Notes under the pieces: generated by a model | The model's database searches: none | What the model saw: only the letters and a program-made list of their open reading frames with translations | Told to the model about the DNA's origin: nothing | Assembly (NCBI GenBank): GCA_027310365.1 | Contig: DAIDAY010000001.1 | Coordinates: 4,142-68,141, forward strand | From: a bacterium | Lineage (GTDB): Bacteria; Patescibacteriota; Minisyncoccia; UBA6257; GWB1-50-10 | Direction: 5' to 3' | Length of the DNA stretch: 64,000 nt | Shown: positions 16,751 through 43,231 of the stretch, piece after piece | Position numbering within the stretch: the stretch's first letter is position 1 | Layout: each line of letters begins with the position of its first letter | Position numbers and translations under genes: made by a program

Positions 16751-16814
16751 AATAAACTTCGGATGCGTTTGTGCCACCCCCGCCTGTTCATCCCCGCCGC
16801 CGTGCGGCAGGAAT

Positions 16815-25112: not shown

Positions 25113-25152
25113 AGCCGTCATTGTGAAATATCAGTGACGGCTTTTTGCTTTT
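25113..25152 (+). terminator. rho-independent terminator
   Basis: A perfect 8 bp stem (AGCCGTCA / TGACGGCT) with a 14 nt loop, followed by TTTTTGCTTTT. Confidence 0.6.
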
Positions 25153-25207
25153 CGTTAGCCTTTTAGGAGGATCACTTTTCCCTGAAGAGGGACATCTGAG
25201 TGAATTG

Positions 25208-25394
25208 ATGAATCCCCGAGCGATGAGGAAGGAATAAACAATGTCGCCTGTCTGAATCCCGAGTCTGCCTCAAAATTCAGTAGGTACTGAATTTTGAGGC
25301 AACGAGGTTGAGTTCGATATTTCGTGGCTTTATTCCAACGAAGAGGGAGGGGGATTCATATGAATGAAAATTCTCCTGATGAAGGGGAAGGTGG
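25208..25394. repeat. ~190 nt intergenic repeat element, copy 1 (contains hairpin 25267..25300)
   Basis: About 85% identical to the reverse complement of 42897..43053. It includes a near-perfect 16 bp inverted repeat (GCCTCAAAATTCAGTA gg TACTGAATTTTGAGGC). Confidence 0.8.
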
Positions 25395-25410
25395 TTCCCG
25401 AAGTCCTCCT

Positions 25411-25437
25411 TTAGCACTTGACAGGTGTGAGTGCTAA
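25411..25437 (+). promoter_or_regulatory. CIRCE operator (HrcA binding site)
   Basis: TTAGCACTT-N9-GAGTGCTAA matches the CIRCE consensus TTAGCACTC-N9-GAGTGCTAA with one mismatch. It lies about 130 nt upstream of hrcA. Confidence 0.85.
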
Positions 25438-25568
25438 TATATAATTATTCTTAACGCTGAATCCCATGAGAAACCGCAAGCCTACAAAAAAAATGACCAC
25501 CTCCCACGTCGCATTAACCGAACATGACGGGCAATCGCTGATGCAAAAGGCGTTGTGCTTCTAAAGAG

Positions 25569-26261
25569 ATGAAAGATCGCAGCAAGGAAATTCTCAAAAC
25601 CGCCGTTGAAGACTATATAAAGACCGGCAAACCCATAACCTCCGAAGGCCTCTACGAAGATCACAATTTCGGCATCAAACCCGCCATGATTCGCTGGGAG
25701 CTGAATGATTTGTCCGAAGAGGGCTATTTCTACCAAACCCATCCTTCCGGCGGCAGGTTTCCCTCAGACAAAGCCTATCGACTCTTCGTGGAAGACTTGG
25801 TCAAAGACGGTTTGAAGGCCCGATGTGCCGATTCCGAATACCGGAGTTCGGTTTTGAAGTTTTTGAAAGGGGAGGTGAATTCTTTTGTGGAAGATGTTTC
25901 GGACGAACTCCGAATGCTTTCCGTAGGATATGAGACACGGAGGAACGAAATGTGGACGAGCGGCCTCTATGAACTTTTGGAGAATTTGGACCTTTTGGAC
26001 AGAGAAGAATTGGTTGACGTGGTGAAAGACGTGGAAATGCTTCCAACGAAGATCAAATCAGGGTTCTGGAGGGACGAAGAAGGTTGGCCGAAGGTTTTCA
26101 TCGGCAAGAATCCCTTCGTGCGGAGCAAGGACGTTGCAGTCATCGCAAATTGCCTCCGGGTCGGAAATGAAAATTTTCTCCTCTTGGCCATCGGGCCGAA
26201 ACGGATGGATTATGCGAAACCACTGGAACTTTTCGAGGTATTAAACAAAGCAGTCGAATGA
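25569..26261 (+). CDS. hrcA: heat-inducible transcription repressor HrcA (short form)
   Basis: The N-terminal winged-helix region (ILKTAVEDYIKTGKPITSEGL...IRWELNDLSEEGYFYQTHPSGGRFPSDKAYRLFV) is HrcA-like. A CIRCE element lies upstream and grpE-dnaK-dnaJ downstream. Confidence 0.7.
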   Translation: MKDRSKEILKTAVEDYIKTGKPITSEGLYEDHNFGIKPAMIRWELNDLSEEGYFYQTHPSGGRFPSDKAYRLFVEDLVKDGLKARCADSEYRSSVLKFLKGEVNSFVEDVSDELRMLSVGYETRRNEMWTSGLYELLENLDLLDREELVDVVKDVEMLPTKIKSGFWRDEEGWPKVFIGKNPFVRSKDVAVIANCLRVGNENFLLLAIGPKRMDYAKPLELFEVLNKAVE

Positions 26262-26326
26262 TTTATTTTTTGAATTTCGAGTAAATGACTGAGTTCATAA
26301 ATTCTTAAATTCAATCAAAATTCGAA

Positions 26327-26830
26327 ATGCTGTCATTCAAAATTATGGAGGAAAACATAAAAAAAGGAGAACAAACGCAGGAGGTGAGCAACGTCGAGGA
26401 AATAAAAAAGGAGCGGGACGAGTATTTAGATGGTTGGAAACGTGCGAAGGCGGATCTCATCAACTACAAGAAGGAAGAGATGCACCGCCTGGAATCATTC
26501 ACCAAGTTCTCGAACGAAGCCATAATGCTCGAAATGCTCCAAGTCCTCGACAGTTTTGATCTGGGACTCTCGATCATCAAGGAAGACGATCCGGCAAGGA
26601 AAGGAGTCATTCTCATCCAGAGCCAGATGAAAGACATCATGAAACGGCACGGACTGGAACGGATCGAGGTGAAGAAAGGTGATCAATTGGACACAAATCT
26701 CCATGAAGCGATAGAAGAAGTCAATTCCGATGCCCCTCCGGGGACGGTAAGCGAGGAAGTGACGGCCGGCTATAAGCTTCACGGAAAAACAATACGGCCG
26801 GCAAGAGTAAAAGTGTCGAAGAAACAATGA
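26327..26830 (+). CDS. grpE: nucleotide exchange factor GrpE
   Basis: DGWKRAKADLINYKKEEMH...MLEMLQVLDSFD matches GrpE. Confidence 0.9.
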   Translation: MLSFKIMEENIKKGEQTQEVSNVEEIKKERDEYLDGWKRAKADLINYKKEEMHRLESFTKFSNEAIMLEMLQVLDSFDLGLSIIKEDDPARKGVILIQSQMKDIMKRHGLERIEVKKGDQLDTNLHEAIEEVNSDAPPGTVSEEVTAGYKLHGKTIRPARVKVSKKQ

Positions 26831-26848
26831 CAAACAATAAACAAAACC

Positions 26849-28708
26849 ATGAGTAAGATATTAGGCATAGATTTGGGGACGACGAACTCGGCGATGGCCG
26901 TCGTGGAAGGCGGCGAGCCGAAAGTCCTCGAGAATGTGGAAGGTTTGCGGACAACGCCCTCTATCGTCGCGATTTCGAAATCGAACGAGCGCCTGACGGG
27001 CCTTTTGGCCAAACGCCAGGGCGTCGTGAACCCGAAGAACACCATTTTTTCGGTGAAGCGGCTCATCGGTCGGAAATTCACCGATCCGGAGGTCCAGAGG
27101 GACAAGGAATGGCTTTCGTACGACATCAAGGCGTCCGAGACCGGGGGCGTCGACATCAAAATGGGCGATCGATGGTACACGCCGGAAGAAATATCGGCGA
27201 TGGTCTTGCAAAAACTGAAGGCTGATGCCGAAGCGAAACTCGGCGAATCGATCACCGAAGTGGTTATCACCGTTCCGGCGTACTTCGACGACTCTCAGAG
27301 GCAGGCAACCAAGAACGCAGGCGAAATCGCCGGGTTCAAGGTGCGGAGGATTTTGAACGAGCCGACGGCTGCTGCTTTGGCCTATGGCATGAACAAGCAG
27401 AAAAACGAAAGGATCGTCGTTTACGATTTCGGCGGCGGAACCTTCGATATTTCCATCCTCGAAGTCGGCGATGACACCGTCGAGGTAAAAGCGACGGGCG
27501 GCGACACTCATTTGGGTGGAGACGATTTTGACAAGAGGATTATGGAATATCTCGTTTCCGAATACAAGAAACAGGAAGGCATCGACCTTTCGAAAGACAC
27601 CTTGGCGCTCCAGAGATTGAAGGAAGCCGCGGAACGGGCGAAGCACGAACTTTCGACCGTCACGGAAACGGAAATCAATCTACCGTACATCACGTCCGAT
27701 GCCAGTGGGCCGAAGCACTTCCTGATCAAGATGACGCGGGCGAAGCTCGAAGATTTGGTGAAGGATATGATCGATCGCTCGATCCAGCTCGTAAAAGAAG
27801 CGGTTGAATCACCCGCTCCCCGGGGAGCGGGGATGAAACTTTCCGACATCAACGAAATCATCTTGGTCGGCGGCCAAACAAGAATGCCCGCCATGCAGGA
27901 AGCGGTGAAGAAACTCTTCAGCAAAGAACCCAATAAAAACATCAACCCGGATGAAGTCGTGGCGGTAGGCGCCGCGGTTCAGGCCGGCATACTCCAGGGA
28001 GACGTAAAGGATATTTTACTCTTGGATGTAACGCCACTGACCTTGAGCATCGAAACGTACGGCGGTGTTGCAACACCCATGATCCAGAAGAACACGACGG
28101 TGCCGACCGCAAAAACGCAAATCTTCTCGACGGCAGCCGACACCCAAACCTCGGTGGAAATCCATGTCGGTCAGGGAGAACGCCCAATGATGGCGGACAA
28201 CAAGACGCTTGCCCGGTTCATCTTGGATGGCATACCGCCCGCGCCGCGCGGAGTTCCGCAAATCGAAGTAACTTTTGACATCGACGCAAACGGCATTTTA
28301 ACCGCGAAGGCCGTCGACAAAGCGACGAACAAGGAACAATCCGTGAAAATTGAGGCCTCGACAAGCTTAAGCAAAGATGAAATCGAGCGTTTGAAGAAAG
28401 AAGCCGCCGAACACGCGAGCGAAGACCAGAAAAAGAAAGAAATGGCGGAAACGCGGAACCAGGCGGAGATGACGATCTATGCTGCGGAGAAATCCGTGAA
28501 AGATGCCGGCGATAAGATAGGCGAAGACGTCAAGAAAGACATCGCCGAGAAACTCGAAAAGGTGAAAGGATTGAAAGACGGCGCCGACATCGACGGCTTG
28601 AAATCGGCCATGAGCGATCTTTCGACGTCACTCCAGAAAATAGGGGAAACAATGTACAATAGGACAGAAGAACCAAACAATGGAACAGGGACTGCAAATA
28701 GTCAGTGA
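26849..28708 (+). CDS. dnaK: chaperone DnaK (Hsp70)
   Basis: [25 protein letters not shown] and [11 protein letters not shown] are all present. Length is 619 aa. Confidence 0.95.
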
Positions 28709-29738
28709 ATCCAAAGAAATCGAAGAAGACAAGAATTGGTGGAAGATCGTTCTCATCGGACTCTTTGATGTCGGAGTGAGCGTTCTCTCGTTTTGGTATC
28801 TAAACCAGTTTCTCAGCGTTGCGGGATTTTCCAACTTTTGGCTCCTCGTTCTGTTTTTCTTCCTTGCTCTCGTCTTCAACATTTTGACCGTCTTTTTGGT
28901 CAAAAGATTGTGGAAAGCGGTTCTCATCGGCTTTCTCGAAATCGCCGTTTCCATCGTATGGTACGCGAAGAACTTCAGCGCAGAGGATCCCAATCTTTCG
29001 CGAATCCTCGTCTTGGGACTTGCGGCGGGATTTTACTTCCTCTTCCTCGGTTTGCGGCGCGGGAACAAGATGATCGAGAATAGTTTGAAAACGAAATTTT
29101 TCGGCACATCAAGACGGATGATACCTATGCTCTCCGCCGGATTTCTTGTCCCATTCATGGTGGTTTTCGGCTTGTACTTCTTCGGCTGGCATGCAGGTTC
29201 TCCCGCGATGGGAAGAGGAATCACCGATGGATTGATCGACGCGATCGTTCCGTTTTCGAGCATCATAACGCCGGGCAATACCGTGAGTCGCGGCGAAAGC
29301 ATGAAAGAACTTTTGAGGAATTTCGCGCTTCAGAAATTGCAGTCGACCAAGATCAGCACAATCGACAAAAGCCAGACGATCAATGTTTCCTACAACAGCC
29401 TCCCTCCCGATTACCAAAAGCAGCTCCTTGACCAGATGACGGGCGAGCTGGAAGCAGGGCTGAAGAGCAAATTCAGCTATTTCGATTCCCGAAAAAGCGT
29501 TGCCGATTTCGCGTACGAAGCGGCATCCGACTATTTTAACAAACTTACCATTGTTTTCGGTTCCTCCGCGCCGGTGCTCCTCGTCGCAGTGCTCTTTTTC
29601 ATCATCAAAGGAACTTTGGTTTTATTCTATTGGCTCATAGAATTCATAGCGTTTGTCGTTTTGAAGATTCTCGTTGTTTTCAATTTCGCGTATCCCAACT
29701 TGGAAACCCGGACAAGGGAATTCTTGCTTCTTTCGTAG
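28680..29738 (+). CDS. polytopic membrane protein of unknown function, embedded between dnaK and dnaJ
   Basis: A 352 aa protein with multiple predicted TM helices. Its start overlaps the dnaK 3' end by 29 nt. No homology recognised. Confidence 0.5.
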
Positions 29739-29834
29739 AAAGGGCAAAATGCAAAGCGCAAGATTGAAACGTAAAACTTTTTAGCTTTAAACTTCAATTG
29801 TGAGTTTTAAATTTCGTATCTTCGGTAAAAATTA

Positions 29835-30926
29835 ATGAAAGACTATTACAAAGTACTCGGTGTTCCAAAGGATGAAAGCGAGGAGAATATTAAAAAGGCG
29901 TACCGGAGACTGGCGCATGAGTACCACCCGGACAAGCCGGGGGGCAACGAAGCAAAGTTCAAGGAAATCAACGAGGCGTACCAAGTGCTCTCCAACAAAG
30001 AAAAGCGGGCGCAGTACGACCGGTTTGGCCAAGTCTTTGAGAACGGAGCTCAGCCGGGAGCCGGTGGGGGCACATGGAATCCTTTCGGCGAGGGGTTTTC
30101 GTCGTGGGGTTTCGGCGGCAACGCGGAGGATATCGGGGATATCTTCGGCGACATTTTTGAACAATTCGGAGGAGGAAAGCGCAAAACTCATATACGCGGT
30201 TCCGATATCGAAATCGCGATCCAAATAACGCTCGAAGAGGCGTTCCGCGGACTTCAAAGGGATATCCAGTTCAAAACGAACGTTGCTTGTCCGTTTTGCG
30301 GCGGTGTGGGATACGACAGAAGCAAGGGGACGAAAAAATGCGCCACATGCGGCGGAAAAGGGGAAGTACACGTTAGCCGGCGGACGATCTTCGGAAATAT
30401 TTCGCAGGCGAAGACCTGCGACGAATGCGGCGGCTTGGGTGAAATTCCGAATGCCAAATGCAAACACTGCGGAGGCGACGGCCGCGTGTTTTCCTCGAAA
30501 ACGGTTTCGATCTACATCGCCCCGGGAATCGAAGACGGCCAAGTGATCAAAATTGCGGGCGGGGGCGAGGCCGGATTGAAGAACGGCGGAAACGGCGATC
30601 TTTACGTAATGGTAGGGGTGACGCCGAGCGCAATTTACACGAGGAAGAAAGATGGTCTCTATGCGACGAAAAACGTGACGCTTTCGGAAGCTCTTTTGGG
30701 AAAAGAGATACCGATAACGGACGTCGGCGGCGAAAAGTTCACGGTCAAGATACCCGCGGGATTTTCGTTGAGCGAAAAGATAACGGTTCCGAAGCGGGGT
30801 ATGCCGCGATTCGGTGGCGGAGGCCGGGGTGATCTCTATCTCACATTCAACCTGAAACTCCCGAAGCACGTATCTTCCAAAGCGAAGAAATTAATCGAGG
30901 ACTTGGGAAACGAACTCAATGATTGA
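29835..30926 (+). CDS. dnaJ: chaperone DnaJ
   Basis: A J-domain ([31 protein letters not shown]), a G-rich linker and four CxxCxGxG zinc-finger repeats. Confidence 0.9.
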
Positions 30927-32046
30927 TGAGGAAAAAACGTGGAGCGTCGGCGGCTTCCTGGATCACCTGAACAACATTCTGAAGAGTGAAGAGGTTTTCG
31001 TCGTCGGGGAAGTGACCGAACTCAAGAAGCACCCCACGGGGTTCTATTTCGCCCTGAAGGATCAGGAGGGCGAAGGTATCCTTTTCTGTTATTTGAGTCC
31101 AAGGAAAGCAAAGATGTTCGGCATCGATTTCGAGGACGGGTTTTTGGTCAAGGTCGGAGGCTCTCCCGGCATTTACAAGCCGCGCGGCAGTTTCAGTTTC
31201 GTCGTGGAAAGTCTGGAGCTCGTGGGCGAAGGATCACTCAAGAAAACATACGAACTTTTGAAGAAAAAACTTGAGACCGAAGGCCTCTTTATGAGAAAAA
31301 GAGAATTGCCGAAATTCATAAATAGTGTTGGTATTATAACTTCAAAGACCGGAGCGGTCATAGATGACTTCAGGAAAAACCTGAAGCAATTAGGCCTTCA
31401 TCTTTGTCTCTATGATGCGAGAGTTGAGGGTCGGGAAGCGGTCGCCAACATCATGGCGGGCATCGATTATTTCAACGGCTTTCCTGAGGGAACGTTCGAC
31501 GTTTTAGTCGTTATGCGGGGCGGCGGAAGCCTGGAAGATTTGCAGGCATTCAACAACGAGGCCGTCGCGCGGAAAGTATTTTCGTCCCGCATCCCGGTTC
31601 TCTGCGGCATCGGCCACGACAAAGACGTCCCGATTGCGAGCTTAGTTTGCGATAAAGCGGTGTCTACCCCTTCGATCGCCGCACAGACGGTGAACGCTTC
31701 GTGGGACGATTTGTTTTCGGGAGTTCCGCTGCTTTCCAAAAAACTCTCGTTCGCTTTCGAATCAGCCCTCGGCGAAGCGGCGGGTACGCTCGAAAACCTT
31801 TCTCAGCCACTTCTCGGTTTTTTGTTTTCGGAAATAGAGCGCGTGAAAGCGCGGCTTGAGTATTTCCTGAAATATTTGAATGCCGCAAACCCGATGAGGA
31901 ATTTGAAACTCGGCTATAGCGTCGTTTTCGGAAACGGGGAAAAGATCATCAAAGATGCCCGGTTATTGAAGAAACACGATAAAATAACCATTAAGCTCTT
32001 TAAGGGTTTGATCGGCGGCAAAGTAACGGATATCATAGATGAATAG
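30919..32046 (+). CDS. xseA: exodeoxyribonuclease VII large subunit
   Basis: An OB-fold N-terminus ([34 protein letters not shown]) is followed by the catalytic core. Confidence 0.85.
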
Positions 32047-32263
32047 CATGCCCACCAAAGACAAAAAAGAAAAAAAGGAAATGAGCGAAGAGTTGAACAA
32101 ACTCCAGAAAATCGTGGAGTGGTTTGAAGAGCGCGAAGAAGTGGATGTTGAAGAAGGCCTTGCGAAAGTCAAGGAAGGCGCCGCTATCATCAAGGATTTG
32201 AAATCGCGGATGAAGGACGTCGAAAATGAATTTGAGATTGTCAAAAAGAATTTAAAAGATTAG
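32039..32263 (+). CDS. xseB: exodeoxyribonuclease VII small subunit
   Basis: A short helical protein (LNKLQKIVEWFEE...EEGLAKVKEGAAI). Its start overlaps the xseA stop. Confidence 0.75.
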   Translation: MNSMPTKDKKEKKEMSEELNKLQKIVEWFEEREEVDVEEGLAKVKEGAAIIKDLKSRMKDVENEFEIVKKNLKD

Positions 32264-32265
32264 CG

Positions 32266-32616
32266 ATGGAAAGCATTTCGATAGACAAGTTCAAGGAAAT
32301 CGATTTGAGGGTCGCGAAAGTTCTTTCAGCTGAAAAAGTCGAGAACGCCGACAAGCTTTTGCGCTTAGAGATTGATCTCGGCTCTTCAACGAATCCAGGG
32401 CAGGCAACAGAGAAAAGACAGATCGTTTCCGGTATCGCGGAATATTATGCGCCGGAGTCGCTCGTCGGCAGAGAAATCATCGTGGTGTACAATCTCGAGC
32501 CGAGAACGCTGAAGGGTTTGGAAAGCAAGGGGATGCTTTTGGCGGCATCGGGCGACGGCTTCGTTTCGCTTCTGGAACCAGATAAGAAAGTGCCGCCCGG
32601 AAGTAAAATTTTTTAA
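32266..32616 (+). CDS. tRNA-binding domain protein (CsaA/Trbp111-like OB fold)
   Basis: IDLRVAKVLSAEKVENADKLLRLEIDLG...QIVSGIAEYY...VVYNLEPRTLKG matches the CsaA/Trbp111 fold. Confidence 0.75.
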   Translation: MESISIDKFKEIDLRVAKVLSAEKVENADKLLRLEIDLGSSTNPGQATEKRQIVSGIAEYYAPESLVGREIIVVYNLEPRTLKGLESKGMLLAASGDGFVSLLEPDKKVPPGSKIF

Positions 32617-32692
32617 TCCCTAAAAAACAGGAAGCGGAAAGTTGGCAGCAAAAAGGTTCCCCGCTTCAAATATATCGGTGATTAAACACCGA

Positions 32693-32716
32693 GGTGGTAT
32701 ACTATAATATACCACC
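32693..32716. promoter_or_regulatory. perfect 9 bp inverted repeat (GGTGGTATA ctataa TATACCACC), candidate operator
   Basis: It lies just 3' of the yerC-like gene. The half-site GGTGGTATA recurs at 33105 (with mismatch) and at 33644 in reverse orientation. Confidence 0.4.
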
Positions 32717-32722
32717 TTGAGC

Positions 32723-33097
32723 TTACGACATCCGCCGGGTCGCAGACGGCCAAACTTTCCTTATTTTTTGATTTTTCCAAATACCGTCCGGATAGTGTTT
32801 CTGCAATTTTTTGCCTTTTCCATTGCTTCTTTGCTTAAAACCAGATCGCAAAAAAGTTATCGTCCTCCTGGTAACGTCTGCACGCCGACTAATTTCTCGT
32901 ATTGGTACGCCCTTCTCCAAGAAAGCAACGATCATTAACCGTTTTTCAAACATCGCCATTTCATCTTGAGGGAGAAGGCGACTGAGTATTTTCTCAATAT
33001 CACCGGCGCTTTTAACTTGCTTCAATGCTCCAAAAAAGCTCTCCCAAACTTTTTCTTTTATATCTTCCTCGAAAAGTTTTTTGCTGGTTCGCGGCAT
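32723..33097 (-). CDS. YerC/YecD (TrpR-like) family DNA-binding protein
   Basis: LPQDEMAMFEKRLMIVAFLEKGVPIREISRRADVTRRTITFLRSG resembles the Trp-repressor-like YerC fold. Confidence 0.55.
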   Translation of the reverse strand: MPRTSKKLFEEDIKEKVWESFFGALKQVKSAGDIEKILSRLLPQDEMAMFEKRLMIVAFLEKGVPIREISRRADVTRRTITFLRSGFKQRSNGKGKKLQKHYPDGIWKNQKIRKVWPSATRRMS

Positions 33098-33124
33098 AGT
33101 TTTGGATGGTATACTATAGTGAAT

Positions 33125-33600
33125 TTAATTCCGCGGGCTGAAGCCCGCGGCTTCCCGTATCATCATGGCATACTTTCGGTATTCTCGCGAATGGAGCTTT
33201 TGACAGCGTTGTAGTTCCTGACCCCCACCGTCTCAGCAAAGCAGCCGTCCGCCCAGAAGTTGTCTCCCCAGAGGAATTCTTCAAGATCAGGAAACTCTTT
33301 TCGGATCACCCGACCGTGCCACCCTTCAGATACTGGACGGCTTTGGCGAGGGCAAGATGTGGTTGAATCTAAGTCATGAGATGGACGTGATTGGGAAGGA
33401 TCTTCGGTTCATCAAGCCACCAGCGGTTCACGGTGGCAGCTTCGTAGAGGAGGTTGTGAAGACGGCCGGCCACTTTGTCTGTTAGTATCCGCTTCTGGTG
33501 CTTAAGAAGCAGAACGAGGCAATGCCGGAGACAGTGTCTCGTGCGGGCACCGCTCCAATGCTTGGGGTGCCATACCGAAAGTATGCCAGACTACGCTTCA
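33125..33600 (-). mobile_element. degenerate IS200/IS605-family insertion sequence remnant
   Basis: A minus-strand tnpA pseudogene carrying both HUH-region motifs. A perfect hairpin (CCGCGGGCTGAAGCCCGCGG) sits at 33131..33150, and 17 nt inverted repeats lie at 33168..33184 and 33571..33587. Confidence 0.6.
33163..33575 (-). pseudogene. tnpA: IS200/IS605 tnpA (Y1 HUH transposase) pseudogene: no start codon, in-frame TAG, and a frameshift
   Basis: Minus-strand translation gives ...HCLVLLLKHQKRILTDKVAGRLHNLLYEAATVNRWWLDEPKILPNHVHLMT*IQPHLALAKAVQYLKGGTVG. After a frameshift it continues RVIRKEFPDLEEFLWGDNFWADGCFAETVGVRNYNAVKSYIREN. This matches TnpA along its whole length. Confidence 0.6.
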
Positions 33601-33695
33601 CCCTACCAGACTAAAGCCTGGGGCTATAGGCAGGGAGAGAGTATACCACTTTCCTATTTTATCCGTGGGCTTATAATCAGTATTGTATTTTCCAT

Positions 33696-34661: not shown

Positions 34662-34840
34662 AGGAGTTGATGCACAAACGCATCGCTGGATGGTCACGCG
34701 ATGAAAAAGTGAAAAAGCTTTTTGGGATAAAATGAAAAATCGTGCTAAACTTGGGAACAAGCCGGGCAATCCGGCGTACCGGACAGCAGCCACATTCAGG
34801 TACCGGCAATATTTGAAGGTTAAAAAGACAAAATCGAAAA

Positions 34841-35515
34841 ATGAACGGTAAACTTTACATCGTGGGAACGCCCATCGGAAATTTGAAGGACATAACGGAG
34901 AGGGGAATCGCGACGCTCAAAAGCGTCGATTTGATACTCGCGGAAGATACCCGGGTGACCAGCAAACTCCTGAACCACCTCGGCGCGAGAAAGCCCATGT
35001 GGCGATATGACGAATACGCGAAGGATGATCTTTACGAACGCATCCTTGAATTCCTGGGAGCGGGGAAAAATATAGCCATGGTGACGGATGCCGGCATGCC
35101 GAACATCGCCGATCCGGGGTCAAAACTGATTTCCTTCGTACGGGAACGGACGCCGGAAGCGGAAATCGTGTCGATACCGGGGCCTTCCGCCATCGTGACC
35201 GCTCTTTCGGTTTCCGGAATGAATGCCGATACATTTACGTTTGCCGGCTACCCACCGCACAAGAAGGGGAGGCAAACCTTTTTCAAAAAGCTGAAAGAAA
35301 TCGAAATGAGGCCCGTTGTCATGTATGAGTCGCCCCATCGGCTCCAGAAAACGTTCGGCGACATGGAGAAAATCTGCTCGTCGCAGCACCCGATAACCGT
35401 GGCGAAAGAACTTACGAAAATTCACGAAGAGGTATGGAGCGGAACGATCGATGAAGCGAAAAAGCATTTTGAAAAGGATCGGGGAAAAGGGGAATTTGTG
35501 ATCATCATACCCTGA
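34841..35515 (+). CDS. rsmI: 16S rRNA (cytidine1402-2'-O)-methyltransferase
   Basis: The tetrapyrrole-methylase fold is present (LYIVGTPIGNLKDIT...ILAEDTRVT...MVTDAGMPNIADPG). Confidence 0.85.
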   Translation: MNGKLYIVGTPIGNLKDITERGIATLKSVDLILAEDTRVTSKLLNHLGARKPMWRYDEYAKDDLYERILEFLGAGKNIAMVTDAGMPNIADPGSKLISFVRERTPEAEIVSIPGPSAIVTALSVSGMNADTFTFAGYPPHKKGRQTFFKKLKEIEMRPVVMYESPHRLQKTFGDMEKICSSQHPITVAKELTKIHEEVWSGTIDEAKKHFEKDRGKGEFVIIIP

Positions 35516-36114
35516 TGGCGTACCGGGGAAAGAGAATGCTGGATTTGATCGTCGCCGTACCGGCTTCCCTGATTACCGCGGTTTTAACACCCTTCGTGGG
35601 TGTCTTCATTGTTTTGGAAAGTGGTTTCCCGATATTCGCGAGGCTCGATCGCGTGAGCGGCAGCAGAACGATCCGGGTTTGGAAATTCCGCTCGATGGTG
35701 AGAGGGGCGCACGCCATAAAGAAGGAGTTGGAAAATTTGAACGAGCGGAAAGACGGACCGCTTTTCAAGATAAAGAATGATCCACGGCTGACAAAAATCG
35801 GGAAAATGCTACGGAAATTCAGATTGGATGAACTCCCTCAGGTTTGGAATGTTTTGACGGGCGATATATCGCTCGTGGGACCCCGGCCGCACGAACCGGA
35901 AGAAATTCTGCAGTATCCGCCGGAATTTAAAAGACTCTTTCTTGCTAAATCAGGTCTCACAGGACTCTCTCAAGTAAGCGGTGCATCGAAACTGCCATTC
36001 AAGGAGGAGGTGGCGCTCGACCTCTTCTACGTCGACAACGAATCGTTTCTCGTGGATTTGAAGATTCTCTGGAAAACGCTCATCATTTTTTTCTCCGACC
36101 CCACGGGAGTGTAG
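35515..36114 (+). CDS. undecaprenyl-phosphate sugar phosphotransferase (bacterial sugar transferase family)
   Basis: KRMLDLIVA...PIFARLDRVSGSRTIRVWKFRSM...DELPQVWNVLTGDISLVGPRP matches the family. Confidence 0.8.
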   Translation: MAYRGKRMLDLIVAVPASLITAVLTPFVGVFIVLESGFPIFARLDRVSGSRTIRVWKFRSMVRGAHAIKKELENLNERKDGPLFKIKNDPRLTKIGKMLRKFRLDELPQVWNVLTGDISLVGPRPHEPEEILQYPPEFKRLFLAKSGLTGLSQVSGASKLPFKEEVALDLFYVDNESFLVDLKILWKTLIIFFSDPTGV

Positions 36115-36413
36115 AGAGAAGAATTATGTTTGACATAGGCCACCGTTGTGAGAGAAGTTTTTAATTTCTCTCTATTTTTTTCTCAACATCTCTATTTTCC
36201 ATTCTTCCCGAAGAAACATTCCATGCAGGCTGCGCGTCTCTGCCTGACGGCAACTCTCGGAGCGCCGATAGCTCGATTCCGCAAAGCGGATATCGGCGCG
36301 AGAGCATAGCGGTGCGGCGAGCCGCTGGAGCGAGCCGACACCCGGTGACAGAGAATATGGACACGCAGCCGAAAGCATGGAAAATCACGTAGAATCGGGG
36401 TAGAATTGAGCTA

Positions 36414-37511
36414 ATGAAAGTTGCCATTCTCCATGATTATCTGAACCAGTTCGGCGGAGCGGAACGGGTGGTGAAAGTCCTTCTCGAAATTTTCCCGAAT
36501 GCCGACATTTACACCCTCCTGCACGACGTGGAGAAAACAAACGGCCTCTTCGCGAAGAACGTCAAAAAGACCAGCTTCCTCGATCATGCACTCGTAACGA
36601 GCCACCACCGCGCCCTGATTCCCTTGATGCCCCTTGCGGCCCGCCTGCTGACCGCGGACGAAGAATATGATTTGGTTCTTTCTTCTTCTGCGGGATACGG
36701 GAAGGGAATTAACGTGAAGGGGCAATATCATGTGTGCTATTGCCATACGCCCCTTCGCTACGCGTGGGAAATCGATTACCTGAAAAACTTGTCGATTACG
36801 CCCAAGGGATTTTCGCAGGTGTTCACATATCCGATCGCGCGGTGGCTCAAGACATGGGACAAGAATGCAGCGCAAAAAGTGAATCTTTTCATCGCCAATT
36901 CAACCTTCATCGCGGATAAGATAAAATCCTATTACGGCCGGGATGCGGTTGTTGTGAATCCGCCAGTCAATTTGAGCGTGTTTTTTCCGGAGAGCGGAAG
37001 CGGAAAAAAAGACTATTACCTCATGGTCGGACGGATGCTGTATTTCAAGGGCTTCGACATCGGCATTCATGCCTTCAATCATCTCCAGAAGCCGTTGAAA
37101 ATCGCGGGGAACGGCCCCGAACTCAAGAAACTCCAAAGGACAGCGAAGTCACCGTACATCGAATTCATCACGAACGCGAGCGACCAAGACCTTCGCCTCT
37201 TGTACTCGAATGCCAAGGCGCTCATTTTCCCGCAAATAGAAGATTTCGGCCTCGTCGCAGCCGAAGCCCAGGCCTGCGGGACGCCCGTCATCGCTTACGA
37301 AAAAGGCGGCATCAAAGATATCGTTATCAATAAAAAAACGGGGCTTTTCTTCGGGGAACAAACCCCTGAAGCCGTCATCGCCGCGGTGAAAGATTTCGAG
37401 AACATGCCGTTCAATCGCTCCCTGATCACCAAGACTGCAGAACGGTTTTCGAAAGAACGTTTCAAGAAAAACATCCTGGATGTTGTGAAGAGTTACGGCA
37501 TACGACTCTGA
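36414..37511 (+). CDS. glycosyltransferase, GT4 family
   Basis: A GT-B fold with the EDFGLVAAEAQACGTPVIAYEKGG motif. Confidence 0.8.
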   Translation: MKVAILHDYLNQFGGAERVVKVLLEIFPNADIYTLLHDVEKTNGLFAKNVKKTSFLDHALVTSHHRALIPLMPLAARLLTADEEYDLVLSSSAGYGKGINVKGQYHVCYCHTPLRYAWEIDYLKNLSITPKGFSQVFTYPIARWLKTWDKNAAQKVNLFIANSTFIADKIKSYYGRDAVVVNPPVNLSVFFPESGSGKKDYYLMVGRMLYFKGFDIGIHAFNHLQKPLKIAGNGPELKKLQRTAKSPYIEFITNASDQDLRLLYSNAKALIFPQIEDFGLVAAEAQACGTPVIAYEKGGIKDIVINKKTGLFFGEQTPEAVIAAVKDFENMPFNRSLITKTAERFSKERFKKNILDVVKSYGIRL

Positions 37512-37614
37512 ATCCCGTGAGCAACGAACGTCCCATCAATGATTTACAAAAATGAGCCAGTGAAATACAAAACTTTTCACAACGAGTCGGGTTTTTTAAT
37601 TTGTTTCTAACGGG

Positions 37615-38775
37615 ATGAAGATTTTCATCGATACGAGATCACTTGACGCAAAAATCATTTCCGGCATCCCAGAATATACGCGCTTCCTGGTCAAAAATCT
37701 CACGGAAATGTACCCGGAGGAAAAATACCTCTTCTTCTCAAACGGCTTTCACAGGAAGAGAAATCCCTCTTCTGCCGAAAACCTCCCGGGGAAGACAATC
37801 AACTACGGTATACCGAACAAAATCTGGGATACGACAAATCGTTTCTCTCATCTACCGAACATAGACAAGCTCGTGAAAGCCGATGTTTACCTGAGCCCGC
37901 ATATCGATATTCTTTCCTTTAAGGAGCCGCGGAAACACATCCTCACCATCCACGATCTTTCGTTCATCTTCCATAAAGAATTTTTCACATGGAGAAAGAA
38001 CTTCTGGCACTGGCGTCAGAACTACCAAAAGCAAATCAAGGAAGCGGGGTGCGTCATTGCGGTATCAGATTTCACGCGCCAAAACATTCTGGATCATTTC
38101 CGCATCGCCGAAGGGAAGGTTGTCCGCATCTATCCGGGGATAAACCCATACTATAAGCAACTCGGCGCGAAGGACGATGGGCTCACGACTTTTCGAAAGC
38201 AAAAAAAAATCAGTTATCCTTTCATCCTTCATGTCGGGACGCTCGAACCGCGCAAAAATGCGATCGGCGCCATAAGGAGCTTCAATATCCTCAAGGAGAA
38301 GAAGGAATTCCGGGACTTACGGTTCATTCTCGTCGGCACACGAGGATGGCTCTATGAAAAAATAGTTGCCGAGATCGCGGCATCACCCTTCGAGAAAGAT
38401 ATTCTTCTTTGGGGGAGGGCAACGGAAGAAGAATTGCGTTATCTCTACAATCTTGCGGCGGCTTTCGTGTATCCCTCTTTCTTTGAAGGGTTCGCTTTTC
38501 CATGCCTCGAAGCCCAGGCCTGCGGGACGCCCGTCATCGCTTCTGACCGGGGACCTCTTCCCGAAACTCTCGGGGAAAGCGCCTTTTTCGTGAATCCTTG
38601 GAAGGTCTACGAAATCGGAATGGCAATGGAGAGCATTTTATCACACAATAATAAAAGGGATGAACTCGTGAAGGCCGGTTTCGAAAACGTAAAGAAGTTC
38701 AACTGGACCGTTGCGGCCCGGGAAGTTATGGAAACCTTGAAAAAAAATCACCATGCCCCAAAAGACTGTTCCTAA
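37615..38775 (+). CDS. glycosyltransferase, GT4 family
   Basis: The EGFAFPCLEAQACGTPVIASDRGPLPE motif is present. The coding sequence contains an A9 homopolymer at 38201..38209. Confidence 0.8.
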   Translation: MKIFIDTRSLDAKIISGIPEYTRFLVKNLTEMYPEEKYLFFSNGFHRKRNPSSAENLPGKTINYGIPNKIWDTTNRFSHLPNIDKLVKADVYLSPHIDILSFKEPRKHILTIHDLSFIFHKEFFTWRKNFWHWRQNYQKQIKEAGCVIAVSDFTRQNILDHFRIAEGKVVRIYPGINPYYKQLGAKDDGLTTFRKQKKISYPFILHVGTLEPRKNAIGAIRSFNILKEKKEFRDLRFILVGTRGWLYEKIVAEIAASPFEKDILLWGRATEEELRYLYNLAAAFVYPSFFEGFAFPCLEAQACGTPVIASDRGPLPETLGESAFFVNPWKVYEIGMAMESILSHNNKRDELVKAGFENVKKFNWTVAAREVMETLKKNHHAPKDCS

Positions 38776-40864
38776 AAAGAATATCGAGCCCGTTTTGGTT
38801 GATATCAGAAAACCCAATTTCAACTACGAGCACCTCGAAAAATTCGAGACGGTCAATCTCACAAAAATCCCGCAAAAAAGGAAGGGGCGTTTTGCCGTTT
38901 TCAAAAGGACAGTCCTCGCGGTTCTTGTCGCTTTCATCATCGGCGTGGTATCGTTCATCGGCATAACATTCGCGAACATCAAACAGATAAAATCGGTCGT
39001 CACGGAAACGGGATCCCAGATTATGCAGAATTTCAATTCATCGGTCGGCGCCCTGAAGAATTTCGAACCCAGCAATGCAACATCGTACCTGGAAAACAAC
39101 ACAAAATCCCTCGCCACCATCAACGACCTTGTCCAAAAGAGCTTCGGGCAGACGATTCTCGACACTCTCGGCAACATCGTGCCGATATTTAAGGAATCGG
39201 TCGGCTTGATAGGCCAAGTGTCGGACTTGAACTACAGCCTTCTCGAACTCACGAATACGCTCGGCGATCTGGAACAAAACGGGTTTAAGTATTTTCAGAA
39301 CAACGGGTCTGCCTTGATAGCCGATCTCCAGAAAATACACACCTTCATCCAGAATCTCAACGCGGAAACGAAGAGCATCAAGAATGCGACCTCATACCTC
39401 CAGAGCATGTCGGGATTTTTCGGCAATTTGAATCAGTCGATCGGCGATCAATATCTGAAATACAGCTCCGATCTCTATGGCTGGGACAATATGCTCATCG
39501 CGCTCATGAACTTCTTGAACTCTTCGACCACGGAACATGTCGCTATTTTGTTCCAGAACCCTTCCGAGATACGGCCGGGCGGCGGATTCATCGGAAGCTA
39601 CGCGGACCTTGCGATCCGGAACGGACAAATCCAAAACCTCGATGTGCGTGACATCTATGACCCCGACGGACAGCTCACCGTAAAAGTCATCCCGCCGGAA
39701 GAATTGCAGGCAACGACGCCGAACTGGGGGGCGAGGGATTCTAATTGGTTCTTTGATTTCCCGACATCCGCAAAAACGGCCGTCAACTTCCTGAATATCT
39801 CCAAGATGTATTCGGAAAAGGGAATACGGTTTGACGCCGTCATTGCGATCAACATTAACGTCGTAGAATCTTTCCTCGACGTAACCGGCCCCATCGCCGT
39901 GCCCGGCTACGGTACCATCAATTCCTCGAATCTTCTTCCCGAGGTGCAGAAAGAAACGGAGGTCGGCGCAGACAAATCCGCCGGCCAGCCGAAGAAAATT
40001 CTCACGGTCATCGCACCCATTCTCATGGAAAAATTGAACGGGCTAAACGTCCAGGGCAACCGGGCGCTTGTGAACGCCCTAAAAACCCATCTCGACAAGA
40101 AAGACATTATGCTCTATTCGACCGACCCAGTCATGCAGAGCTTTCTTGGCGCGAACAATTTGGATGGCTCGGTCTACGAACTGCCGGATAGTTTCTGGGG
40201 CAATTATCTTGCCGTCGTGAATGCGAATGTGGCGGGCGGGAAAAGCGACGCCTTCATCGACGAAAGCGTGACCGCGAAGATCGACATGGACACGAGCGGC
40301 AACACTTTCACGAACGTTTCCATTGCGCGGCAGCACAACGGTAATACAGCCCAAGACCCTTGGTGGAAGGCAAAAAATAACGACTTCATTCAAATTTTTA
40401 CCGAACCGCAATCGAGTCTGGTCGACATCAAGGGGAATGACTTCCGCCCGAAGTATTCCCCGCTCGCAAACTATGCCCAGTCGACATACGCCGTGAACCC
40501 GGATCTCAATGCCATCCAATCGGGAGAAGTATTCCTTTCCAATTTCAACGCCTGGCAGCGCAATGAATTCGGCAAAAATGTCTTCGGCGCCTGGCTTGTC
40601 ACTCAGGCAGGCGGAACCAAGAATCTCACGATCCGGTACCAGTCGAGCTATACGAACGTAAAAGCGCTCCTGCCGGGCCAACAGTACACTTTTATCTTTG
40701 AACGGCAGTCGGGCGTCAAAAATTCCCTTGATTTGACCATCAATGCCCCCTTCAAATATTATTGGGTGGAATCGAATTCACCCGTCTTCACGTATCGCTC
40801 GGATGATCCAGACAAGAGAATAATCATAACCTTGACTTTGGGTTACCAAAGTCTCAACGAATGA
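38753..40864 (+). CDS. large membrane-anchored extracytoplasmic protein, possibly DUF4012-like (hypothetical)
   Basis: A 703 aa protein with one N-terminal TM helix and an ...EIRPGGGFIGSYADL... motif. The gene overlaps the upstream GT4 gene by 23 nt. Confidence 0.5.
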   Translation: MPQKTVPKKNIEPVLVDIRKPNFNYEHLEKFETVNLTKIPQKRKGRFAVFKRTVLAVLVAFIIGVVSFIGITFANIKQIKSVVTETGSQIMQNFNSSVGALKNFEPSNATSYLENNTKSLATINDLVQKSFGQTILDTLGNIVPIFKESVGLIGQVSDLNYSLLELTNTLGDLEQNGFKYFQNNGSALIADLQKIHTFIQNLNAETKSIKNATSYLQSMSGFFGNLNQSIGDQYLKYSSDLYGWDNMLIALMNFLNSSTTEHVAILFQNPSEIRPGGGFIGSYADLAIRNGQIQNLDVRDIYDPDGQLTVKVIPPEELQATTPNWGARDSNWFFDFPTSAKTAVNFLNISKMYSEKGIRFDAVIAININVVESFLDVTGPIAVPGYGTINSSNLLPEVQKETEVGADKSAGQPKKILTVIAPILMEKLNGLNVQGNRALVNALKTHLDKKDIMLYSTDPVMQSFLGANNLDGSVYELPDSFWGNYLAVVNANVAGGKSDAFIDESVTAKIDMDTSGNTFTNVSIARQHNGNTAQDPWWKAKNNDFIQIFTEPQSSLVDIKGNDFRPKYSPLANYAQSTYAVNPDLNAIQSGEVFLSNFNAWQRNEFGKNVFGAWLVTQAGGTKNLTIRYQSSYTNVKALLPGQQYTFIFERQSGVKNSLDLTINAPFKYYWVESNSPVFTYRSDDPDKRIIITLTLGYQSLNE

Positions 40865-41037
40865 AACAAAAGAATATTCGAAATTTTTGCATCATCGCAT
40901 AAATCGATGGCACGGCTCGCTCTCCAAGTCGCTCTCACGAATCCCGCAATTCGTGAGCTCCGCGATGGGAGAACTTCTGTTTTCCCGACCCTCTTCCCGT
41001 CAATGTGCGCTTATGCAAGAATATAGTTACATATCAC

Positions 41038-42852
41038 ATGGAAACCAAAAATATAAGAAACTTCTGCATCATCGCGCACATTGACCACGGCAAATCGACC
41101 CTGGCGGACCGATTTCTTGAAATAACGGGGACGGTTGATTCACGGCACATGCACGCCCAATACCTCGACCAACTCGAGCTGGAGCGCGAGCGAGGAATAA
41201 CCATCAAGATGGCTCCCGTCCGGATGAGCTACGGCGACTATATTCTGAATTTGATTGATACTCCCGGCCATTCAGATTTTTCCTATGAGGTTTCGCGCGC
41301 CCTCCAGGCAGTCGAAGGGGGGGTCCTTCTCGTCGATGCGACACAGGGTATCCAAGCCCAGACGCTTTCGAATTTCCGCTCGGCAAAGAACGCTGGACTC
41401 ACAGTGATAGGTGCAATCAATAAAATCGACAGATTCAAAGACCGGAACGATCCCATACTCCTCGAATTAAAGAAAGAAGTCGCCGACCTGATCGGCGTCG
41501 AAGAGAAAAAGATCTTCATGGTTTCCGGCAAAACCGGAGAAGGAGCAAGGCAGCTGCTGGACGTTGTCATAGAAAAAGTACCGCCGCCAAAAGCCGCAAT
41601 TCCAAATGACAAATTACAAATTCCAAATTTAGGCCGAGCGCTGCTCTTTGATTCTTTTTATGACGATCACAAAGGCATCGTCGCTTCGGTTCGGGTTTTC
41701 GACGGCAAATTTCAGAGAGACGATACCGCCGTCTTTGCGATCAACAATGTGAATTTGAAAATCAAGGAAGTCGGTTACTTCGCGCCACAGATCAAGGCGG
41801 GAACAAGCATCGGAACGGGGGAAGTGGGATACATCGCGACGGGCATCAAGGACACGAGCAAGGTGAAAATAGGAGACACCGTATTGAATTCAAAAGTTCA
41901 AATCTCAAATGCCACATCACTTGCCTTGCCTGGCTACCGGGAACCCAGCCCTGTGGTTTTCGTCTCATTTTACTCGGAAGACGCGAATGACCACGACGTT
42001 TTGCAAAGGGGGCTGGAAAAGCTTCACTTGAACGACTCATCTTTAAAAATAGAGCAAGATCAAAATGAGATTCTGGGGAGAGGGTTCAAGGTGGGATTCC
42101 TTGGGAAACTCCATTTCGAGATAACGGCCGAGCGCCTCGAGCGTGAATTCAACGTGACGGTGGTAAGCACCTTCCCATCAGTCGTCTATAAAATCAAACA
42201 CCAGGGGCACATCAGCTTCATAACGAAACCCGAAGACTTGCCCGAAGGAGTGGAAGAAATTTGGGAACCGATCGTGGCAATCAACATCCTCACGCCCTCG
42301 AACTATTTGAGCAACGTCATCTCGCTCCAGCGGACGTTCCGAATGCGAGATCTCACGACCACGACCATCGGGACGGCGATAGAAATCGACGGGCGGATGC
42401 CTTTGGCCGAACTCATCAGCGATTTCGACGACCAGTTGAAATCGGCAACATCCGGATATGCTTCGTTTAGTTATGAATTCGAGAACTATGAAAAAGCAGA
42501 TATCGTGAGGGTTGACAGCTATGTCGCAAGCGAGATAGTGCCGGGACTCTCAAGGTTCTTCCCCAAGGAAACCGTTGAGCATGAAGCGCGGAAGATGGTT
42601 GAGAAACTCAAAGAAACGCTTCCGCGGCAGCAATTTTCACAGGCAATCCAGGCGAAGATCTCCGGGAAAGTGATAGCGCGGGAAGACATCCCGGCCATGC
42701 GGAAAGAACTCGGGAATTTCGGCAAAAATGGGGGAGACCGAACAAGGAAGATGAAGCTTTGGCAGAAACAGAAGAAAGGGAAGGAGAAACTAAAAGCGAT
42801 GGGGAAGGTCACAATCGCCCCAGAGGTGTTCAAGGAGTTGATCAAAAAATAG
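41038..42852 (+). CDS. lepA: elongation factor 4 (LepA)
   Basis: IRNFCIIAHIDHGKSTLADR, DTPGH and the LepA-specific C-terminus are present. Confidence 0.9.
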   Translation: METKNIRNFCIIAHIDHGKSTLADRFLEITGTVDSRHMHAQYLDQLELERERGITIKMAPVRMSYGDYILNLIDTPGHSDFSYEVSRALQAVEGGVLLVDATQGIQAQTLSNFRSAKNAGLTVIGAINKIDRFKDRNDPILLELKKEVADLIGVEEKKIFMVSGKTGEGARQLLDVVIEKVPPPKAAIPNDKLQIPNLGRALLFDSFYDDHKGIVASVRVFDGKFQRDDTAVFAINNVNLKIKEVGYFAPQIKAGTSIGTGEVGYIATGIKDTSKVKIGDTVLNSKVQISNATSLALPGYREPSPVVFVSFYSEDANDHDVLQRGLEKLHLNDSSLKIEQDQNEILGRGFKVGFLGKLHFEITAERLEREFNVTVVSTFPSVVYKIKHQGHISFITKPEDLPEGVEEIWEPIVAINILTPSNYLSNVISLQRTFRMRDLTTTTIGTAIEIDGRMPLAELISDFDDQLKSATSGYASFSYEFENYEKADIVRVDSYVASEIVPGLSRFFPKETVEHEARKMVEKLKETLPRQQFSQAIQAKISGKVIAREDIPAMRKELGNFGKNGGDRTRKMKLWQKQKKGKEKLKAMGKVTIAPEVFKELIKK

Positions 42853-42896
42853 AGAGCGGAGGTTTTCCCTCGCTTAGTCTCTCATTCGTCAAAATC

Positions 42897-43053
42897 CACC
42901 TTACCCCTCATCGAAATGAAAGGAATAAAGCCGTGCAATATCGAACTCAGCATCGCTGCCTCAAAATTCAGTACCTGCTGATTTTTGAGGCAAGATCGGG
43001 ATTCCGACGGGTGATCGTTTACCCATTCCTTCCTTATCGCTCGGGGATTTTAA
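42897..43053. repeat. ~160-190 nt intergenic repeat element, copy 2 (inverted relative to copy 1; hairpin 42958..42991)
   Basis: The reverse complement aligns with 25208..25394 at about 85% identity. Matching blocks include the 16 bp hairpin arms, GAGTTCGATATT, GGCTTTATTCC and CCCCGAGCGAT. Confidence 0.8.
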
Positions 43054-43231
43054 AACGCTTTCGGGGAAACTGTTCGAAACGACTTTTGTTCTCTCTTGAG
43101 GAGAGATAGAATAGAAAGCAATGAATCCTGTTGGAAACCGCAAACTTATGCAAATCATAATCATCAACCGAGTCGAGTTAATCGCACATCATAGGCAGTT
43201 GCTTTAAGTAAGGCGTTCTGTTCCCAATAAG

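Follow-up and report, generated by a model that had tools for sequence, protein, structure and literature searches.

Strand-specific hairpin repeats with a symmetric G.A helix in intergenic terminator slots of Patescibacteria

The DNA analysed here, called the window in the following, is a stretch of 64,000 nucleotides (nt) from a Patescibacteriota genome (assembly GCA_027310365.1, contig DAIDAY010000001.1, positions 4,142 to 68,141). It contains, upstream of the hrcA operon (copy 1) and downstream of lepA (copy 2), two related sequences that each form one long imperfect hairpin of ~245 nt, which we call a rod. An earlier note on this DNA had described the two as a repeat pair in opposite orientations, and the alignment bears this out, with 83% identity over 130 nt between 25211-25336 (+) and 43049-42922 (-) (blastn, E=4e-31). 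A repeat search of the window also returned a 93-nt inverted pair between copies 1 and 2 with 85% identity, and the similarity of the two copies exceeds chance by far. The statement that the element is present at two loci was too narrow, there are three copies in the window and many more in relatives.

The rods are neither a classical MITE (miniature inverted-repeat transposable element) nor a demonstrated small RNA gene. Judged from sequence comparison, they would be a multi-copy, non-autonomous dispersed hairpin repeat of the general REPIN/ERIC kind with an unusual anatomy, a reading to which we give a probability of about one half. Their residence in terminator slots, their strand-specific fold, the symmetric G.A helix, the invariant module and the turnover between genomes are firmly established.

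Anatomy and folding strand of the rods

Intact members are single, almost unbranched hairpins of 200-250 nt with folding energies of about -57 to -110 kcal/mol. The basal stem is 10-22 bp long and differs in sequence at almost every locus. It is followed by a moderately conserved lower stem with purine-rich internal loops, which comes in two main flavours, TTGAGCG..TTGTTCGAGGTTG or CTTTTC.TAGCCAGCCTGTTGAAG, each with its partner, and by a short A/U helix. The next part looks like a purine loop and is a helix, in which 5'-CCGAGCGAGGAGGA-3' faces 3'-GGAGCGAGCAGCAG-5' after a shift of one base, so that tandem G.A/A.G pairs alternate with G-C pairs and GAGCGA stands opposite GAGCGA. A G.A or A.G pair is present at each of the eight positions in 13-24 of 27 members, and at seven of these positions in 18-24, and in several members the distal part of this helix is replaced by Watson-Crick pairs of the same length. 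Above it are GGAAU/AUUCC or AAGAAG/CUUCU, an 11-bp covarying helix (for example CACAATAGCG/CGCTATTGTG in one form and CGAAATATCG/CGATATTTCG in another) and the invariant module, TGTYTGAATCCC ... GGTTGAGTTCG, the 5' half of which was not selected for by our first pattern scan and yet is invariant in its matches. The apical hairpin, 19-45 nt, is unrelated between many copies, and a few types recur across subfamilies and genomes.

The secondary structure is conserved and covarying. RNAalifold predicted 64 pairs from ten sequences, 37 of them with compensatory changes, and in an alignment of 27 members double changes were found at 16 pairs, in 105 cells. The covariation score of these 27 members was 0.273, as compared to 0.106 in shuffles (0 of 500 reached the observed value) and 0.03-0.09 when the partners were slid. 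The alignment was made with MAFFT and the structure was derived from the same sequences, which favours the measure of cells paired; the double changes and the slid control are less affected. The compensatory substitutions that had been proposed as a check on the hairpin do keep the structure.

In each of the 25 curated rods, folding favours the purine-rich strand, by 5-29 kcal/mol over the complement. G.U pairs number 142 in the helices of this strand and A.C single mismatches 9, and there are 80 tandem GA/GA loops. The difference in stability and the large excess of G.U over A.C imply that selection acts on the fold of the purine-rich strand, either in RNA or in single-stranded DNA. This strand is the plus strand in copy 1 and the minus strand in copies 2 and 3. 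It is most often the pyrimidine strand that is transcribed together with the upstream gene, yet structural selection is not acting on that strand. The ends of the rods were set manually, as RNAfold and duplexfold overran into the flanks.

The element had been called a non-coding repeat, and no reading frame is conserved. A coding repeat or a small toxic peptide of the Sib/Ibs type was rejected, with no open reading frame (ORF) conserved across subfamilies by eye. The same holds for T-box, 6S, SRP, Y-RNA and tRNA-like structures, in view of the copy number, the lack of Rfam hits and the position of 'TTCGA' within a covarying helix, and for a kink-turn, as no 3-nt bulge adjoins the G.A pairs.

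Distribution, genomic position and turnover

Members were gathered by pattern scans and by profile hidden Markov model searches (nhmmer), which gave more than 40 relatives of the rods in Patescibacteria genomes and groundwater metagenomes. A 20-nt block common to copies 1 and 2 served as the first pattern, and in species-representative genomes it found eight true homologues: five in the 805-kb chromosome OY970216.1 and one each in JAJYWR01, JAMCYI01 and CAYQPG01. The second pattern, taken from a different part of the rod, matched 23 metagenome contigs, mostly from groundwater, 22 of which are members. The profile added copy 3 of the window and extra copies beside known ones. The search for further copies that the earlier note had proposed was thereby answered with more than 30 homologues elsewhere from independent patterns. 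OY970216.1 has five rods inside 20.5 kb, and short-read contigs repeatedly terminate within rod copies, as is expected of a dispersed repeat.

The possibility that the element would resolve into a known RNA family did not materialise. Rfam 15 found one tRNA only in the window at the gathering threshold, weak miRNA and snoRNA noise only for both copies at E<=10 (with sub-threshold box C/D-like hits in copy 1), and nothing relevant at E<=1 in the intact members L025, L017, L021, L022 and L046 (L numbers denote loci). Three scans of viral contigs returned 0, 0 and one chance coding match, with no rods, and blastn searches of phage and plasmid collections were empty; a phage or plasmid origin was rejected on these results. 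Literature searches for a repeat or non-coding RNA of this type in the candidate phyla radiation (CPR) found nothing specific. The rod family is absent from Rfam 15, was not found described in these literature searches and has so far been seen in Patescibacteria (CPR) only. The best relatives of the LepA, HrcA and RRF proteins of the window are in metagenome-assembled genomes labelled Patescibacteria, Minisyncoccia, Jorgensenbacteria or Paceibacterota.

The neighbours of the rods are housekeeping genes (frr/rseP, lepA/divIC, S10, parB, efp, mreB) and also pilin-like genes. Seen in the orientation of the folding strand, 16 of the 24 informative cases have a stop codon on the 3' side of the rod, 12 of them within -11 to +15 nt, whereas stop codons on the 5' side are a median of ~100 nt away, often with the terminator of that gene in between (Mann-Whitney p=0.0003 for the distances, with curated ends). 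The rods occupy intergenic terminator slots, in which a convergent stop codon adjoins their 3' end; at hrcA its place is taken by the CIRCE (controlling inverted repeat of chaperone expression) and promoter. Sigma-70-like sites are not enriched upstream of the folding strand (7, as compared to 8 on the other strand and 4.9 in shuffles), and in L003, L010 and L025 just 9-25 nt lie between the 5' end of the rod and the neighbouring start codon. The terminator scan of the window called no terminator at the rod ends, and in the loci examined there was no rod split around an ORF. Two simple targeting rules were rejected: the identity of the stop codon is unbiased (9 TAA, 5 TAG and 1 TGA against a background of 100/48/55), and the orientation of the rods alternates within one co-directional 20-kb region, contrary to a replication-strand rule.

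Comparison of the lepA site between genomes points to a gain of copy 2 there. Relatives with LepA identities of 87%, 76% and 73% have lepA-divIC spacers of 87, 185 and 44 nt, respectively, in which the rod profile finds no rod; the site is rod-free in L038, L039 and L041. The closest relative has an ordinary terminator at the position of copy 2, and on the far side of the site the T-run and divIC promoter are homologous.

The slot at hrcA, from the upstream terminator to CIRCE, is filled in five genomes with HrcA identities of 69-100%, and its interiors differ: the window, L043, L045 and L044 hold rod subtypes, whereas L051 has a second hairpin family containing GAGCGA. Four of the five genomes have homologous sequence in the ~25 nt upstream of CIRCE, the stretch that makes up the basal stem's 3' arm, and the 5' arms (AGGAGGATCAC, GGGAAGGACACC and AGGAGGATATC) are complementary to each genome's own 3' arm. 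At the hrcA site of L044 and L051 the complementary 5' arms change in step with the 3' flank. Such matching changes imply that the outer stem behaves as a conserved hairpin of the locus that evolves by compensatory change, and that the interior can be exchanged.

Four genomes have a filled frr slot, and two of these hold the second hairpin family there, in opposite orientations. OY970216.1 has an intact rod at the site of the degenerate copy 3, and rods in two further spacers where the window has a different 77-nt repeat. In the orthologous pairs L009/L010 and L029/L035 the rod is kept and the apex is different, and L009 has lost the 3' lower arm. Compared with the window, OY970216.1 also has two extra pilin-like genes that adjoin or are flanked by rods.

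Other repeats and genes were observed at these sites. The second hairpin family (AAACCGTCTCG..GAGCGGGC..CCGAGAGCGAGCG..ATAGCGTGTTT) was seen at L047 2033-2201, L048 10556-10850 (frr slot) and L051 9790-9975 (hrcA slot); it contains GAGCGA motifs too and may be distantly related to the rods. The 77-nt repeat is direct, with 88% identity between 13203-13278 and 16810-16886 (+), has no Rfam match and lies just upstream of a tRNA-synthetase-like gene (13310) and a PBP2-like gene (16988). Pilin-like (N_methyl) genes lie beside rods at L049 10749-11972 and 18311-19642 (OY970216.1) and at L003 4424-5683, and are absent from the syntenic region of the window. One of them sits between two inverted rods, and this suggests that rods mark the borders of inserted genes.

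The copies in the window and their surroundings

The features of the three copies are collected in Table 1. With the lower and basal stems included, copies 1 and 2 are longer than the ~160-190 nt of the earlier note. The blocks it listed as shared are present in the MAFFT alignment apart from the last, which had been mis-paired: in the alignment of the family, GATGAGGGGTAAGGTGG of copy 2 (42912-42896) lines up with AACGAAGAGGGAGGGGG of copy 1 (25337-25353), and GATGAAGGGGAAGGTGG of copy 1 (25379-25395) is the 3' arm of its own basal stem. Nor does copy 1 end 17 nt before CIRCE, as its basal stem (TCCTCCT, 25404-25410) reaches the base adjoining the operator. The apical hairpin of 16 bp is where it had been placed, with 25267-25282 pairing with 25285-25300.

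Copy 1 is nearly intact, with its first helix of the 11-bp type weakened and an idiosyncratic lower stem, and its plus strand folds with -91.6 kcal/mol in RNAfold as compared to -74.3 for the complement. Copy 2 has the lower stem typical of the family, and its basal stem is mostly broken, with AGAGAG/CTCTCT remaining. The apical hairpin of copy 1 is common to copy 2 only, and other members carry different hairpins at this place. That the two copies have a private apical hairpin in common and different lower stems argues for exchange between copies and not for a simple duplication. Copy 3 belongs to a different subfamily; it retains CTGTTTGAATCCC, an apical hairpin and GACGATGAGCGAGGGTGATTTT, whereas the GAGCGA block of the 5' side is gone. 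At 24873-24917 (-) the 5' lower part of the rod profile also gave a weak partial match (E=0.005), in a stretch of 350 nt with short ORFs only and without Pfam hits. A fourth copy, oriented head-to-head with copy 1, may have left this remnant.

Table 1. Rod copies of the window, their parts and the adjoining signals
Feature	Position	Strand	Remarks
Copy 1, whole rod	25165..25410	+	nhmmer E=9.5e-46; lies after the upstream gene's terminator and before the CIRCE/hrcA promoter
Copy 1, basal stem 5' arm AGGAGGATCACTTTTCCC	25165..25182	+	pairs with 25384-25410
Copy 1, tandem G.A helix, 5' strand CCGAGCGATGAGGAA then GGAAT	25216..25235	+	faces 25332-25353
Copy 1, invariant module, 5' half TGTCTGAATCCC	25249..25260	+	invariant columns in alignments A2 and A3
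Copy 1, apical hairpin, 16-bp stem GCCTCAAAATTCAGTA / TACTGAATTTTGAGGC	25264..25303	+	exchangeable module
Copy 1, invariant module, 3' half GGTTGAGTTCG	25306..25316	+	alignments
Copy 1, ATTCC then G.A helix, 3' strand AACGAAGAGGGAGGGGG	25332..25353	+	alignments
Copy 1, basal stem 3' arm GGGGAAGGTGGTTCCCGAAGTCCTCCT	25384..25410	+	pairs with 25165-25182
Copy 2, whole element	42851..43096	-	nhmmer E=1.6e-37; begins at the lepA stop TAG (42850-42852), antisense to lepA
Copy 2, apical hairpin	42955..42994	-	near-identical to that of copy 1
Small hairpin AGCGAGGGAAAACCTCCGCT then T-run (42844-42849)	42854..42873	-	terminator-like on the folding strand of copy 2; no terminator-scan call
Copy 3, degenerate	~10540..10700	-	nhmmer E=4e-19; right after the frr stop (10537-10539), antisense to frr
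Intrinsic terminator of the upstream gene	25111..25144	+	20 nt before copy 1
CIRCE operator	25411..25437	+	overlaps the hrcA promoter
hrcA promoter, perfect TTGACA-16-TATAAT	25418..25445	+	overlaps CIRCE

A second conserved, non-coding motif of ~110-120 nt was observed at 25455-25568 and 43120-43231 (+), between the promoter and the start codon of hrcA and of the divIC-like gene, and also upstream of divIC in L039 (11880-12000). It starts with TGAATCC..GAAACCGCAA, ends with AAGGCGTT.TG.T.C.AA..GATG and has the octamer TGAATCCC in common with the invariant module of the rods. The motif is absent from L038 and L041 and has no Rfam match; it looks like an mRNA leader.

The first ~47 nt of lepA are duplicated upstream of the gene (40861-40907 and 41038-41084 (+), 72% identity), where the duplicate overlaps the end of a DUF4012 gene and contains a stop codon. 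A perfect repeat of 35 nt, 37262-37296 and 38508-38542 (+), lies within the adjacent ORFs 36414-37511 and 37615-38775, whose syntenic counterparts in relatives have glycosyltransferase domains. A repeat of ~105 nt with 76% identity, 19333-19435 and 20955-21061 (+), starts 155 nt upstream of the gene start at 19488 and 160 nt upstream of that at 21116, and its second copy overlaps the end of the preceding ORF. The 35-nt and ~105-nt repeats may reflect paralogy rather than mobile repeats. Some ~30 ORFs of the window were scanned against Pfam, and the sole recombinase found was a large serine recombinase (43596-45062 (-), with Resolvase, Recombinase and zinc-ribbon domains) immediately after a tRNA (43534-43604 (+)). 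An integrated element probably has its edge at the tRNA and this gene, at a distance of ~500 nt from copy 2.

Interpretation and comparison with known systems

The comparison of the hrcA locus suggests how a dispersed repeat of this kind could behave. The rod may lodge inside locus-specific intergenic hairpins, and recombination between copies may exchange its interior and apex. The symmetric G.A platform and the invariant module would together be a putative binding site of a dimeric trans-acting protein. The most speculative step is a function in cis, in which the rod would work in one orientation only, either as a barrier to read-through and antisense transcription or as a site at which such transcripts are processed. 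The stable fold arises only in transcripts that head for the feature at the 3' end, the 3' end of a gene or the hrcA promoter, which makes a cis barrier conceivable, and such a barrier would account for the close fit of the rods at their 3' end and the looser spacing at the 5' end, for the lack of a promoter and for the conservation of the hairpin upstream of hrcA. We put this role forward tentatively, with the odds on balance against it. It is more doubtful whether the rods represent a new class of structured nucleic acid, with a G.A platform and an invariant module for a putative dimeric protein, spreading via hairpin loops (the apex too), and with it a new mode of transposition or recombination, or a gene-insulating ribonucleoprotein.

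Several results weigh against a dispersed repeat with a barrier function. There are no conserved terminal inverted repeats, as the ends differ in nearly every copy and it is the middle that is conserved, and no consistent direct repeat was present in the flanks of ~27 copies inspected for the target-site duplications that the earlier note had proposed to look for. No transposase, Y1, HUH, tyrosine recombinase or Nop-domain match was found among the ~30 scanned ORFs of the window to serve as a partner gene. The absence of rods in relatives was judged with a profile of the rod family only. The 16:8 split of orientations is in itself not significant (p=0.15), and T-runs after the rod, in either orientation, occur in only about a third of the copies (by eye), with T- or A-runs beside no more than a minority of the rods, which leaves simple intrinsic termination unsupported. 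A barrier would not require a conserved core of ~100 nt, and the sequence alone does not separate an action as RNA from one as single-stranded DNA.

The rods could instead be genes of stand-alone, trans-acting structured non-coding RNAs, the purine-strand rod being the product, which would bind or sequester a dimeric protein via the G.A platform and is perhaps freed from longer transcripts by an RNase III cut in the basal stem. We find this rather unlikely. The strong covariation and the excess of G.U over A.C on one strand agree with it, and so do the gradient of conservation from core over lower stem to base, typical of RNAs with a closing stem, the compensatory change of C-G to U-A in the lower stem between L029 and L035, the basal arms that change in step at the hrcA site and the terminator-like hairpins that follow some copies on the folding strand, for instance copy 2 and L003. 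The structured small RNA gene that the earlier note had offered as one of two possibilities is right in that the element is non-coding, strongly structured and subject to compensatory change. It is weakened by the lack of promoter enrichment and of room upstream of several 5' ends (9-25 nt from the neighbouring start codon in L003, L010 and L025), by the many decayed or truncated copies, such as copies 2 and 3 of the window and L009, and by presence/absence and subtype replacement at the same site. We also know of no RNA gene family with five copies in 20 kb. A purely DNA-level element, in which the folded purine strand is the single-stranded substrate of a recombinase or HUH-type transposase, like attC or IS200/REPIN, and has no role as RNA, is unlikely. 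It would account for strand-specific folding without a promoter, for the variable apex and base, for the second hairpin family, which is not a rod, being inverted between L047 and L048, and for the position directly behind stop codons, where the folding strand runs antisense to the gene in the way generally known of attC bottom strands. But genes for an integrase, Y1 or HUH enzyme were seen neither in the window nor next to copies, the alternating orientations in a co-directional 20-kb region follow no replication-strand rule, and G.U makes up ~7.5% of the pairs, which is typical of RNA. Moreover, attC and REP are cut at the foot of the hairpin, whereas the conservation of the rods is in the middle. 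Head-to-head pairs and clustering, as in REPINs (PMC3116915), are again on the side of a DNA-level element.

Two further explanations have less to recommend them. Most copies begin at the stop codon of a gene whose transcription would yield the pyrimidine-rich strand, and in several loci the next canonical terminator is beyond the rod, as would be the case if the rods were 3'-untranslated-region elements on that strand, acting as terminator, as 3'-end stabiliser or through exposed CCUCC loops. The pyrimidine strand has C.A mismatches and tandem U.C loops and is always less stable, which implies that selection is not maintaining its fold, and the hrcA copies have the opposite arrangement, so this explanation is very unlikely. 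A classical DDE-type MITE or a simple local duplication is barely credible. The MITE-like mobile repeat of the earlier note was correct as far as the rods are multi-copy, intergenic and gained and lost among related genomes, and failed on conserved terminal inverted repeats and target-site duplication, and no transposase with matching ends was seen at the loci examined or among the scanned ORFs of the window; in addition, copies occur across many genomes and metagenomes, and the divergence between them is compensatory.

A dispersed hairpin repeat, the reading we prefer, has its closest counterparts among the REPINs, which are REP doublets mobilised by RAYT transposases and are much shorter than the rods. 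REPINs are extragenic and multi-copy, form hairpins as single-stranded DNA or RNA with compensatory changes being common, consist of two highly conserved REP regions with a less conserved spacer between them, and cluster by insertion into or beside existing copies, with no transposase inside the element (PMC3116915). The rods resemble them as extragenic hairpin repeats with compensatory changes and clustered copies. They differ in being conserved centrally, with a variable base and tip, whereas REPINs are conserved at the terminal REP motifs, and in that no RAYT gene or Y1 domain was found in the scanned ORFs of the window. To our knowledge, the tandem G.A helix is not a feature of REPINs. ERIC, Correia (NEMIS) and Rickettsia palindromic elements are imperfect palindromes of 100-150 bp or more, intergenic and often transcribed; repeats of the ERIC type have an unusually high sequence conservation across genera and reported orientation-dependent effects on RNA, and Correia elements have conserved terminal repeats and a TA duplication. 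In the rods, by comparison, the ends are specific to the locus, the G.A pairing is specific to one strand, the apical hairpins can be exchanged and the hosts are Patescibacteria; sequence similarity to these elements was not seen, though no search aimed at it was made.

The attC sites of integrons lie at or over the stop codon of the preceding gene, and their recombinogenic fold is on the antisense strand, as imperfect hairpins with a variable terminal structure. They are 57-141 bp long with conserved R/L boxes at the foot, and occur in arrays beside an integrase and without a conserved core of 100 nt. The foot of the rods, in contrast, is locus-specific, the copies are dispersed singly, and no tyrosine recombinase was found in the scanned ORFs. 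Elements of the IS1397 and ISKpn1 type insert into the loop of palindromic units and leave locus-specific inverted flanks. They provide a precedent for DNA lodged in a pre-existing intergenic hairpin, which for the rods is suggested by the hrcA comparison, but are autonomous members of the IS3 family with a transposase, while the rods are non-coding. The TIGR-Tas systems of the CPR have hairpin RNAs that bind a symmetric protein dimer (PMC12045711). TIGR differs in forming arrays beside tas, with variable loop spacers and short box C/D motifs, whereas rods are single and their variable parts are paired stems; no array was seen, and no Nop-domain match among the scanned ORFs of the window.

Genomes of Patescibacteria are ~0.8-1 Mb in size with little non-coding DNA, and yet one relative carries five rods of 220-250 nt in 20 kb. 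A strand-specific fold and an invariant core have been selected across lineages whose housekeeping proteins are only ~70% identical. This would make the rods either a successful genomic parasite or a built-in separator of transcription units, which might for example shield the HrcA/CIRCE heat-shock operon. For annotation pipelines they provide an alignable RNA/DNA family, and they are a marker that breaks short-read assemblies of the host organisms. The rods may also be a route toward a partner protein, and they offer a testable case of a helix built from repeated tandem G.A pairs.

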